Positions 4,695 to 47,723 of a DNA stretch of 48,686 nucleotides are shown here, one piece after another. Where the stretch lies: the NCBI GenBank assembly GCA_022842585.1, contig JALHPI010000003.1, forward strand, positions 1-48,686. Reading direction: 5' to 3'. The DNA comes from Minisyncoccota bacterium. Its GTDB lineage: Bacteria > Patescibacteriota > Minisyncoccia > Phycocordibacterales > Phycocordibacteraceae. Below the pieces are notes generated by a model. That model searched no databases. It was not told where the DNA came from and worked only from the letters and a program-made list of their open reading frames with translations. The position numbers and the translations under genes are program-made. How positions within the stretch are numbered: the stretch's first letter is position 1; the number at the start of each line of letters is the position of its first letter.

Positions 4695-5110
4695 TGCGAA
4701 AAGTATTTCTTGCCGGAGGCGTACTTGTGCTCGCAGGGATACTCGGACTTTTCGCACTCAATCACCCGTCGTACTCGCTTGCGCATATTGAAATCGCCGA
4801 TACGCCCTTCGCGCGTGAACAAGGACTTTCCGGCAGAACTGAGATATCGGAAGACTACGGCATGCTGTTCATTTTTCCCGAAAAGGGCGACTACGGGTTT
4901 TGGATGAAAGACATGAAGGTACCTATCGACGTATTCTGGATTGCCGATGATGGAACAATCGTGGGCATCGAGCACGAGCTCAGCCCCGACACCTACCCGG
5001 AAGCGGTGCATCCACCTCTGCCGGTACGCTACGTGCTTGAGACGAAGGCGGGGACTGGAGCGGCGCGCGGATGGGTGGTAGGTACGACCCTTGCACTTCC
5101 TCTTCGTTAA
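4694..5110 (+). CDS. DUF192 family exported protein
   Basis: EIADT...REQGL, GMLFIF, FWMKDM..PID, YVLE; N-terminal hydrophobic segment. Confidence 0.85.
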   Translation: MRKVFLAGGVLVLAGILGLFALNHPSYSLAHIEIADTPFAREQGLSGRTEISEDYGMLFIFPEKGDYGFWMKDMKVPIDVFWIADDGTIVGIEHELSPDTYPEAVHPPLPVRYVLETKAGTGAARGWVVGTTLALPLR

Positions 5111-5113
5111 ACC

Positions 5114-5124
5114 TGTGGTATAAT
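5114..5124 (+). promoter_or_regulatory. Extended -10 promoter for rnpB
   Basis: TGTGG-TATAAT, with the hexamer ending 6 nt before the first P1 base. Confidence 0.75.
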
Positions 5125-5149
5125 TAAGTCGTGCTGGTACAGGCAGTCG

Positions 5150-5275
5150 CCCAGCCCCACTTTTACAGCGCGAAAATTTATTTATCGCCATAGTTGCGAT
5201 AGAAAAATTTCGAACGGGAAAAATTGTCTTGCAGACAATTTTTCCAAAGGATCGTTCTGTAAAAGTGGGGCTGGG
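5150..5275. mobile_element. Non-coding hairpin (MITE-like) element, copy 1, at the P3 position of rnpB
   Basis: Perfect 19-bp IR CCCAGCCCCACTTTTACAG / CTGTAAAAGTGGGGCTGGG with two internal stems. Confidence 0.8.
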
Positions 5276-5293
5276 AGGAAAGTCCGAACACAG

Positions 5294-5420
5294 CCCAGCC
5301 CCACTTTTACGGTGCGAAATTCTACCCATCAACAACTTGATAGTAGAAGAAATTTCGAACGTGAAATGTAGTCTGAAAGACTACATTTCCGAATAATCGT
5401 TCTGTAAAAGTGGGGCTGGG
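5294..5420. mobile_element. Non-coding hairpin (MITE-like) element, copy 2, between P5 and P7 of rnpB
   Basis: 17-bp IR CCCAGCCCCACTTTTAC / GTAAAAGTGGGGCTGGG; junction motifs shared with copy 1. Confidence 0.8.
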
Positions 5421-5590
5421 AGCAGGGTAGCGGGTAACTCCCGTCCGCCGTAAGGCGCGAGGTGCGAACAGAGACGTTCCTAAGCGAAAGCGCGGGAACA
5501 CCCTCCGAATCCGCAAGGAATACGGGGGTGAGCCTGAAGGGTAACCTACAGGCTGAAACGGCAAAATCCTTACCTCTGTGCAAGGCCGTG

Positions 5591-5897
5591 TCCAGCCCCA
5601 GTTTTAGGTACAATGAGCCTATGTTCTCAGTTTATGTAATCCAGCACGACTCTACTAAAGAGATTTATATTGGATTTACAAGCAATCTGCGAAGACGGCT
5701 CATTGAACACCAATCCCGTGGCAATACGTCGACGAAGCGGAAAGTGGGCAAATGGCATCTGATATACGCCGAAGCGTATCGCGCAGAAGCTGATGCTAGG
5801 CTCCGTGAACGTCGACTGAAAAGCCACGGGAGCGGGAAACAAGGGTTAATCAAGCGTATAAAGGCTAGTTTGCTTGATACCTAAAACTGGGGCTGGA
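5591..5897 (+). mobile_element. IR-bounded GIY-YIG cassette in the P15/P16 region of rnpB
   Basis: Perfect 20-bp IR TCCAGCCCCAGTTTTAGGTA / TACCTAAAACTGGGGCTGGA enclosing one ORF. Confidence 0.85.
5621..5884 (+). CDS. Small GIY-YIG nuclease (87 aa)
   Basis: MFSVYVIQ...IYIGFTSNLRRRLIEH...LIYAEAY...ARLRERRLK: the VY/YIG, R and E catalytic pattern. Confidence 0.9.
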   Translation: MFSVYVIQHDSTKEIYIGFTSNLRRRLIEHQSRGNTSTKRKVGKWHLIYAEAYRAEADARLRERRLKSHGSGKQGLIKRIKASLLDT

Positions 5898-5990
5898 AGT
5901 GCCGCTTGAGGCCGTCGGCAACGGCGGTCCTAGATAAATGACTGTCCAACGACAGAATTCGGCTTATCGGACCAGCACGTCAAATGCGAT

Positions 5991-6020
5991 ACACCCGCCT
6001 CACGGCGGGTGTTCGCTTTT
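5991..6020 (+). terminator. Intrinsic terminator after rnpB
   Basis: ACACCCGCC-tcac-GGCGGGTGT followed by a T-rich tract. Confidence 0.7.
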
Positions 6021-12903: not shown

Positions 12904-13152
12904 ATGAAGCACGCGTATGCGTGCGTAATGGCTGGAATAAGAGAATCGAAGCTGAGCACGGGTACCATTTTCAGCAGAAAATGGTCGTGCGAAGGGTGGT
13001 CAGGCGGAGTATCGAGTGACGACGAGATGCGAGCGCTTGACCGATGCGCGCTGAGATTTTGTTAGCATTCCGATGCTCTAGAAAATCCAAGTGTGGTCAT
13101 TCCTGTGAGCCACTGCCTGCGGTCTTCGCAGGACACTCCCCGTATTTCGCAC
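12904..13152 (+). repeat. tRNA 3'-associated structured element, copy 1 (homologue at 28726-28923, minus strand)
   Basis: Inverted copy of the tRNA 3' end (12934-12950), shared ~105-nt core, direct copy CCCGTATTTCGCAC ending at 13152. Confidence 0.8.
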
Positions 13153-18981: not shown

Positions 18982-20151
18982 TTAGGCAAGATGCAAATTC
19001 CCGTTTGCGGTAACATCCTTCTTGAATTCCTTCCTCCGCGCGCGGTAAAAGCCTGCAAGTCCTATCATGAGCGCGTTGTCGGTCGTGAGGTCGCGCGACG
19101 GGATGTGGAGCGTTACTTCAGGATGGTCCCTAGCAATCATGTCGGTGAAGAGTCGCTGTATGTGCTTATTTGCAGCAACGCCTCCACCGATGATAAGCAT
19201 CTTTGCACCCGATTCGTCGAGTGCGCGTGACGCTTTCTTCCATAGCACTTCGGATACCGCGTCCTCAAATTCTCTCGCCATTTGCTCTTTCTCTATGTCA
19301 GTAAGTGTACCTTTCTCCTTTATCTTGTAGAGCACTGAAGTCTTTATGCCGGAGAAAGAAAAGTCGTAATCGTTGCTCTCAAGCATGGGGCGGGGCAGGA
19401 TAAACGGGTTTTCTCGCTGCGTTTCTCGGTCGCGTTCGGCAAGCTTTGAAATTTGCGGGCCGCCGGGATAGGGAAGGTCCATCATGCGCGCGACTTTATC
19501 AAACGCCTCTCCCACTGCATCATCCCGCGTGGCACCCAGGAGTTCATACGAGAGCCAGTCCTTCATCAAATCAAGCTCGGTGTGCCCGCCTGAAATAAGC
19601 AACCCAAGCACCGGCAGCTTCACACTCTCCACTGTCAAGGTGTCACCTTGACATGAGGCGAGGGATGCGAGGAAGTGGCCCTCCATGTGGTTTATCGGAA
19701 CGATAGGGATGTCCCAGGCGACCGAGAGCGCACGCGCAAAATTCACCCCGACCCAGAGCGCAGGTTCAAGTCCCGGTCCATGTGTAACGGCGATAGCGTC
19801 TATGTCGGCGTGCTTAGTAGTACTAAGGAATAAGAGAAAGGCATCAGTAAGGCCGGGCTCGCGCGCGAGTATTTCGGACACCTTTGCACGTGTTTCTTCG
19901 GAAATGTCTTGTGGCGCTTCTGTAAGCATGCCGGCTTCTTTGAGTGCCGCATGCAAAAGCGGGGTGAGGTTTTCAGCATGCGCGCGCTTCGCGAGCGCCG
20001 GGAACACCCCGCCGTACTGCTTGTGTATCTCTATCTGGGAGAGGAGTGCGTTCCCGAGTATCTTGAACGTCGCCGACTCGTCCGTGCCCGACGCTTCAAG
20101 CAATGCTACCGCCGTCTCATCACAACTCGTCTCTATCGCAAGAATGTTCAT
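18982..20151 (-). CDS. tsaD: tRNA threonylcarbamoyltransferase TsaD
   Basis: ILAIETSCDETA, NHMEGH, SGGHT, TRDDAVGEAFDK, DNALMI. Confidence 0.95.
   Translation of the reverse strand: MNILAIETSCDETAVALLEASGTDESATFKILGNALLSQIEIHKQYGGVFPALAKRAHAENLTPLLHAALKEAGMLTEAPQDISEETRAKVSEILAREPGLTDAFLLFLSTTKHADIDAIAVTHGPGLEPALWVGVNFARALSVAWDIPIVPINHMEGHFLASLASCQGDTLTVESVKLPVLGLLISGGHTELDLMKDWLSYELLGATRDDAVGEAFDKVARMMDLPYPGGPQISKLAERDRETQRENPFILPRPMLESNDYDFSFSGIKTSVLYKIKEKGTLTDIEKEQMAREFEDAVSEVLWKKASRALDESGAKMLIIGGGVAANKHIQRLFTDMIARDHPEVTLHIPSRDLTTDNALMIGLAGFYRARRKEFKKDVTANGNLHLA
19633..19653. repeat. 21-bp palindrome inside tsaD (second copy at 45001-45021)
   Basis: TGTCAAGGTG-T-CACCTTGACA. Confidence 0.7.
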
Positions 20152-20170
20152 AGGAGAGATACCGATAAAC

Positions 20171-20190
20171 TGATATGATATATCATATCA
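20171..20190. promoter_or_regulatory. Perfect 20-bp palindrome upstream of tsaD (identical copy at 35423-35442)
   Basis: TGATATGATATATCATATCA. Confidence 0.6.
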
Positions 20191-20250
20191 GTTAGTGCAA
20201 GAGACCAGAGAAGAGACAAGAAGAGAGGGTGTACGGCATGACTATGAGTA

Positions 20251-28725: not shown

Positions 28726-28923
28726 CCCACGGAGAAGCGTACTGATAAGAATCAGTCGCGCATCGGCGAAGCGCTCGCATCTCGTCGTCACTCGATGCTC
28801 CGCCTCGCCACCTCGCACGACCATTGTCTGCTGACAATGGTTCCCGTGCTCGCTTCGATTCCCCGTAGGGTCTACAAACGGCAACAGCCGGAAATGCATA
28901 CGCATTTCCGGCTGACCGATTTG
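28726..28923 (-). repeat. tRNA 3'-associated structured element, copy 2 (after tRNA-Glu)
   Basis: Inverted tRNA 3' copy at 28854-28872, core nearly identical to ~12945-13050, direct repeat CCCACGGAGAA at 28726-28736 and 28928-28938. Confidence 0.8.
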
Positions 28924-35358: not shown

Positions 35359-35422
35359 AGTCCGTGCAGTATATCAAAAAATTTATCTACCTGCTTCAGA
35401 ACCTCCTACACCACCTTCTAAA

Positions 35423-35442
35423 TGATATGATATATCATATCA
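35423..35442. promoter_or_regulatory. Perfect 20-bp palindrome upstream of trxB
   Basis: TGATATGATATATCATATCA, identical to 20171-20190. Confidence 0.6.
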
Positions 35443-35555
35443 TTTTAATACAGGGGTATGTACCACAAGGTAAAGGAAAAGGCGGTCAACGAGCGTGAGA
35501 TCTCGTTAACCGCCTCCTGCGCCCCTAGGCGACTTTTTTCGGACCCTACCAGTCC

Positions 35556-41273: not shown

Positions 41274-41431
41274 GCTTGCTCAAAATAAAAGGCAGCATCG
41301 CCTTACAGGGCGCACGTTGCGTGTTGTCGCCGTATAGCAGAAAATCCTTAAAGCGCTTCGCTAGTCAGGATTTTCCGATACGGCTCTGCACGCAACGGCT
41401 GCTTTCAGGAAGCCTTTTATTTTGAGCAAGC
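41274..41431 (+). repeat. ~155-nt multibranched structured repeat, copy 2
   Basis: Perfect 20-bp closing IR GCTTGCTCAAAATAAAAGGC; motifs CGCCTTACAGGGCGC, TAAAGCGCTTCGCTAGTC, CGGCTGCTTTCAGGAAG. Confidence 0.75.
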
Positions 41432-45000: not shown

Positions 45001-45021
45001 TGTCAAGGTGACACCTTGACA
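45001..45021. repeat. 21-bp palindrome in the rpsA leader
   Basis: TGTCAAGGTG-A-CACCTTGACA, matching 19633-19653. Confidence 0.7.
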
Positions 45022-45451
45022 TGAGAAGAGGGTTAGCCCGCTTGCGCCTTACGCACGCCACTCTTGACCTTCGGACTATAGCATAGGTCGTATAAAACAA
45101 AAGGCCCGAAAGCGCTTTGCTTTACGGGACCTTGCGGCTCCAGTGGGGAGGTCTTTGTCTGACCTCCCCACCTTCGCATAGACGACCAGCTGGGGTTGGG
45201 GCTGGGTGCTGGCCGCCTAAGAAGAACTTGTGTAAGCATCATATATCAAGTATGAAAATTGTCAAGTCTTGCTTGCCTATATACAAGAAAGGCTCGCCCG
45301 AAAGCGAGACCCTTGTTGGACGTGTGGGGAGCGATTGTGGTCGCTCCCACACAGCCCCTTTCCTAAAACTGGCTCTCTCGAGCTCTTCCTTCAGCCGAGG
45401 GCTTCAGGCATTCCGTTTCAGCTCTATGCTGGCATTGCCCGATGCGTGGGA

Positions 45452-47539: not shown

Positions 47540-47575
47540 TAAAATGTTATGAGTAGAACGAATTAGATTTTATTA

Positions 47576-47683
47576 ACCCAGCCCCACTTTCCAACATGAC
47601 AACTTTTTATGTCGTTTTAAGTTTAAAACTCGGAAACCGTTCTTTCGGTAGTAGAACGACGTATGTGGAAAGTGGAGCTGGGT
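47576..47683. mobile_element. Intergenic member of the CCAGCCCCA hairpin family, upstream of gyrA
   Basis: ACCCAGCCCCACTTTCCA / TGGAAAGTGGAGCTGGGT (one mismatch), AT-rich interior with small stems. Confidence 0.75.
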
Positions 47684-47723
47684 CTAAGATTTCTTAACTC
47701 GCTTCGCTCTAACGAAATCTAAG

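Follow-up and report, generated by a model that had tools for sequence, protein, structure and literature searches.

Two gene-less inserts of nearly equal length lie in the RNase P RNA gene (rnpB) of a Minisyncoccota bacterium, and a third insert in the same gene carries a GIY-YIG nuclease gene. Where do these inserts come from, how did they replace parts of a ribozyme, and is their fold kept as RNA or as DNA? We address these questions for the window, i.e. the whole stretch of 48,686 nucleotides of contig JALHPI010000003.1, and for relatives of this bacterium. We lean, with slightly more confidence than doubt, towards the view that inserts 1 and 2 are non-autonomous hairpin-swap elements, moved in trans by a small SLX1/UPF0213-like nuclease.

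An enlarged RNase P RNA gene

The host gene is a class A RNase P RNA with its conserved regions in order (Table 1). In the window, RF00010 finds it only as partial matches (5420-5575, E 2.5e-5; 5802-5975, E 6.8e-14), and all these pieces stay below the gathering score. The insert-free orthologue of a relative (locus L088, genome G923) reaches 131.9 bits against the same model, for a cut-off of 100. Such inserts thus conceal essential RNA genes from annotation. The -10-like motif TGTGGTATAAT is identical in L088, as is the 18-nt segment between inserts 1 and 2, which was assigned from the Rfam alignment. A two-hexamer scan near the rnpB 5′ end returned no full promoter. Furthermore, the genome of the bacterium contains rnpA and RNase III genes and no match to HARP (PF08745). 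Since rnpA is present, PF08745 is absent and the genome is 96% complete, the enlarged RNA probably works, and probably has to. The organism was present in none of the RNA sequencing runs examined.

Table 1. Position and nature of the features discussed in the text (window coordinates)
Feature	Position	Strand	Remarks
Extended -10 promoter-like motif TGTGGTATAAT	5114..5124	+	7 nt 5′ of the RNase P RNA start; by eye
rnpB, class A RNase P RNA, enlarged by three inserts	5131..5978	+	Rfam RF00010 and insert-free orthologue
Insert 1, 126 nt	5150..5275	+	In place of helix P3 (20-nt hairpin in relative)
Motif GCGAAAATT in insert 1	5170-5178	+	
Insert 1, first inner hairpin	5174..5211	+	Imperfect; register differs among copies
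Insert 1, second inner hairpin	5217..5245	+	Perfect 13-bp palindrome, loop TGC (GCA on opposite strand)
Conserved host segment, 18 nt	5276..5293	+	CR-I / P4 5′ strand; separates inserts 1 and 2
Insert 2, 127 nt	5294..5420	+	In place of 14-nt hairpin between P5 and P7
Insert 2, second inner hairpin	5363..5389	+	Perfect 12-bp palindrome, loop GAA
GIY-YIG cassette, 307 nt	5591..5897	+	Perfect 20-bp inverted repeat, same family; candidate mobiliser
P0001, 87-aa single-domain GIY-YIG nuclease gene	5621..5884	+	PF01541, E 1.2e-13
Terminator-like hairpin after rnpB	5991..6012	+	
Family member, 106 nt (~100-nt class)	47577..47682		Nested in larger insertion before start codon

G923 is the closest genome found (89% identity over 5421-5590). 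Its rnpB has the same flanks at the three sites, where the hairpins measure 20, 14 and 14 nt. All three are replaced base to base in the window, with neither duplication nor remnant, and the cassette stands where the 14-nt hairpin at the P16 position would be. The site of insert 2 is presumably the P5.1-like position of RNase P RNA. At two of the three sites, the variable closing pair of the insert differs from the basal pair of the relative. An RNA-library contig from a relative closer than G923 lacks inserts 1 and 2 and has 51 letters between the flanks, for 270 in the window, and 51 is the length of the G923 empty allele. This length, together with differences at 17 of 260 positions, identifies the contig as the empty allele of a relative, and splicing as its origin was rejected. 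An assembly artefact is ruled out by a public DNA contig which spans 5050-5448 with one difference and comes from a run that may be the source sample.

Anatomy and fold of inserts 1 and 2

Both inserts fold into a 19-bp closing stem and two inner hairpins. The pattern first described for them from the letters (an inverted repeat, GCGAAA(A)TT and two hairpins) is borne out, every named motif being found in each insert. The stem of the first hairpin is TATCGC/GCGATA in insert 1 (5183-5188/5196-5201) and CTAC..ATCA/TGAT..GTAG in insert 2 (5322-5346). Folded as RNA, inserts 1 and 2 have z-scores of -9.9 and -12.0, respectively, and folded as DNA, of -10.5 and -11.7; z is about -10 to -12 on either strand, and none of 200 shuffles folds equally well. 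The first hairpin of insert 1 reaches a z of -5.4 on the sense strand. A 25-nt 3′ motif has exactly two matches on the plus strand of the window and one match with three mismatches on the minus strand, a total of three which was reached by 0 of 100 shuffles.

The 17-nt arms of the two inserts are identical at 34 of 34 positions. Their interiors are 62-67% identical, a value like that of host-to-host four-fold sites (284 of 460), and the inserts are sisters on the tree (support 0.98). A secondary-structure model, which ignores the pseudoknot and the co-transcriptional order, favours cross-pairing of inserts 1 and 2 by 85:15. According to this model, near-identical inserts on both sides of the 18-nt catalytic segment would be a folding hazard.

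A defined module rather than deletion debris of the GIY-YIG cassette had been proposed, and this proposal is supported by the lack of any GIY-YIG trace, by the existence of 16 copies and by the covariation of two helices (see below). Debris was rejected with a GIY-YIG profile built from 68 homologues, whose best match in all frames had an E of 0.31; the control gave 1e-37. The similarity of the interiors to three cassettes does not exceed that of shuffles.

A class of sixteen copies and its family

Four copies beyond the two of the window were chosen by the terminal repeat alone, in pattern scans. From these six, a covariance model was built with the terminal stem and the second hairpin, the first hairpin being omitted, and its search returned ten more copies. 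The resulting class comprises 16 copies of 125-128 nt, in which a 17-bp terminal stem (CCAGC.CCA.TTT type) closes two inner hairpins. Four copies are hosted by rnpB (in four different helices), two by 23S and one by 16S, while nine occupy non-RNA sites, several of them directly before the start codons of protein genes. All seven copies within RNA genes are in the sense orientation. The interiors are 34-92% identical. Two copies in L068 and one in L069, of 118-120 nt and with a different second hairpin, were omitted from the alignment because they would not align in register.

At E<=0.001, the covariance model has matches in 25 of the 151 genomes of the order, most of them to a ~100-nt class. 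The exact repeat pattern was found in 1 of 401 genomes of the order and the lenient pattern in 4 of 401 genomes in the phylum, while further model searches gave 3, 1 and 1 of 80 genomes. No match to the family was obtained in viral contigs, and Patescibacteria are the source of the public records in which this repeat stands at such sites. The genome of the bacterium itself holds five gene-less family copies. A group I or II intron, or a known Rfam family, was rejected as the identity of the inserts, with no Rfam intron match in the window or the region and no Rfam family matching the inserts.

Several side observations illustrate the variety of the family. By length, 96 family elements fall into clusters of 99-107, 125-128 and 287-332 nt, the last being cassettes, and a tail extends over 31-69 nt. 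At window 47545-47722 and at C16:7290-7495 of the same genome (G000), family elements lie inside members of a second repeat family, which consists of ~160-175-nt insertions directly before start codons, absent in relatives. In L076 (1500-1608), the family inverted repeat has a tRNA gene as cargo. The rnpB genes of L032, L064, L109 and L156 carry family elements at two to four helices each, and those of L041, L057, L058, L059 and L065 have long inserts with other repeat families at the same helices; the P3 insert of L058 has a GIY-YIG-like reading frame, and its ends are different. A conserved structured leader precedes a gene with an rpsN-like start (by eye) in L086 (C19:2735-2885 of the same genome), L124 and L125. 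It gave no Rfam match at gathering score, and in L086 one of its hairpins is replaced by a 103-nt family element. Finally, unrelated repeats of the window lie at 12954-13050 and 28757-28851, at 41274-41431, at 19633-19664 and 45001-45032, and at 20166-20195 and 35418-35447.

Covariation of the helices

Covariation was assessed on the 16 copies by a G-test with background correction, our own approximation of R-scape. The nulls comprised 300 alignments for each of two schemes which redistribute the parsimony changes on the tree. The second hairpin has a mean G of 8.6 against about 0, a value reached by 0 of 300 null alignments, and five of its pairs have E<0.05. For the terminal stem, the null count is also 0 of 300, with four pairs at E<0.05. 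The first hairpin gives no significant covariation, since 46-47 of 300 null sets reach its value; a fixed register, in which 61% of its cells are paired, was rejected. For the junction, 68-71 of 300 null sets reach the observed G, and 75% of cells are paired against 54-56%. A separate pair counter agrees with these results. In a register-free analysis of the sense strand, a first hairpin forms at z<-2 in 10 of the 16 copies and not in the other six. An inversion of this hairpin in L160 and L163, suspected by eye, was rejected: the antisense z is 0.7 and -0.8, and the hairpin is lost instead.

The sequence-only reading had stated that both inner stems undergo compensatory changes and had asked for covariation with more copies. 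The second hairpin does covary, as does the terminal stem, but the first hairpins of the two inserts pair in different registers and their covariation does not emerge. The latter changes are therefore better described as re-formed hairpins than as covariation of columns.

The second hairpin requires a closer look. Its constancy is inflated because 10 of the 16 copies were found by a model which contains it; in the six starting copies it is 100% paired as well. Its ten core pairs include no G-U cell and only double Watson-Crick changes. Of the 16 loops, 8 read GNA and 6 its reverse complement, with a flip between two copies which are 92% alike (GCA in L067, TGC in L072). Stable d(GNA) loops are known from DNA, a C-G closing pair being the most favourable (PMC3201870, in part); the closing pair found here is T-A. 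Template switching is described as yielding both compensatory changes and loop inversions (PMC8794818, in part).

A mobile element whose inner stems are unselected by-products, with template switching making or repairing palindromes in a length-constrained spacer, would be another explanation, and we consider it possible, if somewhat unlikely. The loop flip between the sisters L067 and L072 and the double nature of all changes in the second hairpin agree with it. Furthermore, the interior beats shuffles in only 6 of 18 copies of the ~100-nt class, and L166 has the same junction without the second hairpin. However, position, length and a GTCT..AGAC core are maintained in the second hairpin while the interiors differ as much as they do, even if this constancy is inflated by the model search. 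In addition, 14 of 16 loops are GNA on one strand, and the sense bias of the junction and first hairpin (see below) is not expected from template switching.

Junctions and helix replacement

Among 21 family insertions examined in rnpB loci, 18 leave no continuous host pair past one variable closing pair, although two of these 18 show a short host remnant past a mismatch. The other three retain one or two extra host pairs. The same replacement occurs in a leader of the own genome and in the distal part of a 16S helix. Over all loci, 82 of 96 distinct family elements have no duplication, ten have one of 2-3 bp and four one of 4-5 bp; for the last group the null mean is 0.84, and 17 of 2000 shuffles reach the observed number. 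Family repeats were found in 4 of 54 other rnpB loci (relative and genus searches), and family insertions in this gene are thus sporadic.

These junctions could also be the end state of another process, in which a MITE-like element enters a loop with a short duplication and the redundant host stem is then lost because selection favours a working RNA. The elements do resemble MITEs in being short and non-coding, in their terminal inverted repeats, in their dispersed copies and in the empty orthologous sites of relatives. The four 4-5-bp duplications, the partly kept host pairs in 5 of 21 rnpB insertions and about four kept pairs in L069 are in line with such a course, and 20 of the 96 elements are eroded to hairpins of 31-69 nt, which means that deletions do occur. 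Yet target-site duplications are lacking at the three rnpB sites as well as in the 82 elements above. Three sites in one gene are all flush while close relatives are still empty, and no rnpB copy examined keeps the whole host stem around the element. We therefore regard MITE-like insertion followed by erosion as unlikely. The three insertions with extra host pairs and the two remnants fit loop insertion and erosion and count against the hairpin swap.

Two further sites deserve mention. In L008 (1197-1306), an element lies at a TTGACA-like box and is bordered by TTGA at either end, which makes a 4-bp duplication, and L144 shows the same arrangement by eye. At the counterpart of window 5490-5517, where the window has an ordinary 28-nt host hairpin, L088 has a 28-nt hairpin with family-type arms CCCAGCACTAAC. 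Judged by eye, it could represent a reciprocal replacement or an eroded element which is now a helix.

RNA or DNA

The strand preferences of the element are mixed. The terminal stem is strand-neutral (five G-U and five A-C), and the junction alone is sense-biased, with 22 G-U against 7 A-C (binomial p 0.008, the copies not being independent). With RNA parameters, the sense strand folds better in nine of nine copies tested.

Could the inserts be a functional RNA (the RNA option of the sequence-only reading), or an intervening sequence removed for example by RNase III, with an inner fold selected as RNA? The better sense fold and the junction bias speak for it, and among copies in RNA genes 6 of 7 have a first hairpin, compared with 4 of 9 elsewhere (p 0.15). 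RNase III is encoded, all copies in RNA genes are sense, and a long stem in place of a stable-RNA helix is what an intervening sequence would look like. The remaining evidence points the other way. No G-U pair is seen in the ten core columns of the second hairpin, and the terminal stem has no strand preference. The loop of the second hairpin occurs in both orientations, whereas for stable loops of rRNA an enrichment of 8- to 66-fold over the reverse complement is given (PMC8794818, in part). No Rfam family matches, and the copies are sporadic and recent. This explanation appears decidedly improbable to us. A last one, that the inserts are domesticated, conserved parts of the RNase P RNA of this lineage, gains from an enlarged RNA which probably works and is largely refuted by the empty alleles of the closest relatives, by the rarity of family repeats in other rnpB loci and by the presence of the same unit in 16S, 23S and before protein genes.

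The claim that selection acts on the single-stranded fold is not borne out by these results: the first hairpin gives no significant covariation, the loop of the second flips between strands, and the junction alone is sense-biased. Selection on an RNA fold does not follow, since template switching can give the pattern of the second hairpin. Overall, the element resembles a system of DNA palindromes on which a weaker single-strand constraint is superimposed in the copy of the transcribed sense, and this signature is more that of a selfish element at the level of DNA than that of a functional RNA. As a general caution, covariation in perfect palindromes need not signify functional RNA.

The candidate nuclease

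The termini of the cassette belong to the family and enclose P0001. A -10-like TACAAT (5609-5614) lies 7 nt before its ATG (promoter by eye), and its stop codon falls within the right repeat. The protein keeps the family-invariant Tyr, Gly, Arg, Tyr and Glu positions, and its model has a pLDDT of 91. Among solved proteins, UPF0213 and SLX1 come nearest and I-TevI ranks lower. Foldseek gave no match at E<=0.001 (best 2.1e-3); NCBIfam returned no specific model above cut-off. To our knowledge, a nuclease of the P0001 type would be the smallest candidate mobiliser.

Close homologues exist in 36 of the 151 genomes. Repeats of at least 14 bp enclose 19 of 30 homologue genes examined, and seven of these 19 match the family pattern. 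All four genomes with the 126-nt class among the 151 have a close homologue. Over all genomes, the co-occurrence is weak: the nuclease is present in 10 of 25 genomes with the element and 26 of 126 without it (p 0.04, kin not being independent; p 0.07 without the own genome). The 23S site of two 126-nt copies holds a cassette in L183. The repeat variants of cassette and gene-less copies agree within a genome or contig in the case of C16 and C19 of the own genome, of L038 and of L068. The local cassette has the repeat CCAGTTTTAGG, and inserts 1 and 2 have CCACTTTTAC[AG]G; because these repeats differ, this cassette may not be the partner of the two inserts. For a second GIY-YIG gene of the genome (on C5), inspection by eye and folding revealed no enclosing repeat; this gene resembles a housekeeping gene of the UPF0213 type.

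A proposed hairpin-swap mechanism

The hairpin swap which we favour would comprise several steps. A nuclease of the SLX1/UPF0213 kind, made in trans from a cassette, would recognise the terminal stem in single-stranded or cruciform DNA. It would then nick at hairpin bases, i.e. at the junctions of single and double strands, in donor and target. This would parallel SsnA, a 94-aa single-domain GIY-YIG protein, which binds to hairpins in ssDNA and cleaves a few bases to their 5′ side (PMC11893778, main text). At the extruded target hairpin, staggered nicks followed by flap trimming would remove the host hairpin, and the donor would be joined in its place. Where a small bubble is filled in instead of trimmed, the occasional 4-5-bp duplications could result. 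As a hydrolytic nuclease alone cannot join DNA, joining by host ligase or recombination is assumed.

In the transcript, the terminal stem would rebuild the helix which the host has lost, and RNase P RNA, rRNA and leaders would tolerate the element on this account. The second inner hairpin would be a palindrome at the DNA level, whose perfect pairing and flips would both result from template switching and which may be used in movement. The first hairpin and the junction would be loosely kept on the sense strand, where a compact insert lets the closing helix form quickly. The inner hairpins may also let each insert close before cross-pairing. The six of 16 copies which lack the first hairpin count against this mechanism.

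If the swap holds, a mobile element would choose its targets by structure and repair the helix that it destroys. The unassigned GIY-YIG-bearing and short inserts of CPR rRNA genes would then be explained, nucleases of the Ssn type might have a selfish origin, and the turnover of peripheral ribozyme helices would have a route. More tentatively, the hairpin swap might be a new kind of DNA mobility: a stand-alone GIY-YIG protein of fewer than 90 residues would cut hairpins of donor and target at the base and swap them, safe sites being found by shape and not by sequence, the 126-nt passenger would carry a working flip-flop palindrome, and eroded copies would become new helices of RNase P RNA and rRNA.

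Comparison with known systems

A small enzyme that works on single-stranded DNA moves REP/REPIN hairpin repeats in trans. The present family likewise combines hairpin repeats with a small, possibly trans-acting enzyme on single-stranded DNA. In contrast to RAYT, the enclosed gene encodes a GIY-YIG hydrolase rather than an HUH tyrosine enzyme, and the copy number is low, with the five gene-less copies of this genome. REP/REPIN and RAYT (IS200/IS605-type HUH) are discussed in PMC11893778 (main text).

Small non-coding repeats such as RPE, ERIC/IRU (127 bp), Correia and RUP measure 100-150 nt and have terminal inverted repeats and long stem-loops (PMC2229807, in part). Rickettsia palindromic elements were even found in tmRNA and RNase P (M1) RNA genes (same source). 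Size, non-coding units, terminal inverted repeats and stem-loops are shared with RPE and MITEs as described there. Unlike these, the present element has no TA ends, mostly lacks duplications and replaces hairpins instead of interrupting them. Its candidate partner is a GIY-YIG nuclease, not a transposase. A GIY-YIG homing endonuclease is not a suitable model either, as P0001 is an 87-aa catalytic domain alone and the sites are many and unrelated.

In rRNA intervening sequences, a long stem, sometimes with an ORF, stands in place of a helix and is excised by RNase III. The replacement of a host helix by a long insert-bearing stem is common to both, but the present element is found in many RNA types and at non-RNA sites.

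A parallel in terms of enzyme is Ssn, a ~90-aa single-domain GIY-YIG nuclease tied to hairpin repeats (NTS/SRM), in which the unit NTS-ssnA-NTS resembles an insertion sequence (PMC11893778, main text). Both systems associate such a nuclease with a family of hairpin repeats. In Ssn as described there, 28-nt hairpins flank the gene, whereas here one inverted repeat encloses gene or cargo, and the present targets are helices of stable RNA genes. The NTS consensus has no match in the window at up to three mismatches, and the main text of PMC11893778 does not mention Patescibacteria or rRNA.

A parallel in terms of location is provided by CPR rRNA genes, which contain sporadic GIY-YIG genes and short (<200 bp) gene-less inserts, distinct from group I/II introns, at the top or base of stem-loops (PMC11270868, main text). 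The same source also mentions rRNA intervening sequences. Its 'insertion sequences' probably include the present family. Its main text mentions neither inverted repeats nor RNase P, although its supplementary tables may list some copies, and its passages on these inserts define neither a structured class nor a replacement mechanism. In its workings, the present element recalls an RPE or MITE with a partner of the Ssn kind. In the literature searched (main texts, few of them from subscription journals), no description of the element in RNase P RNA was found. Compared with these systems, the new findings are the base-to-base replacement seen against a close empty allele, the class of 16 copies, and helices of one element of which two covary and one does not.
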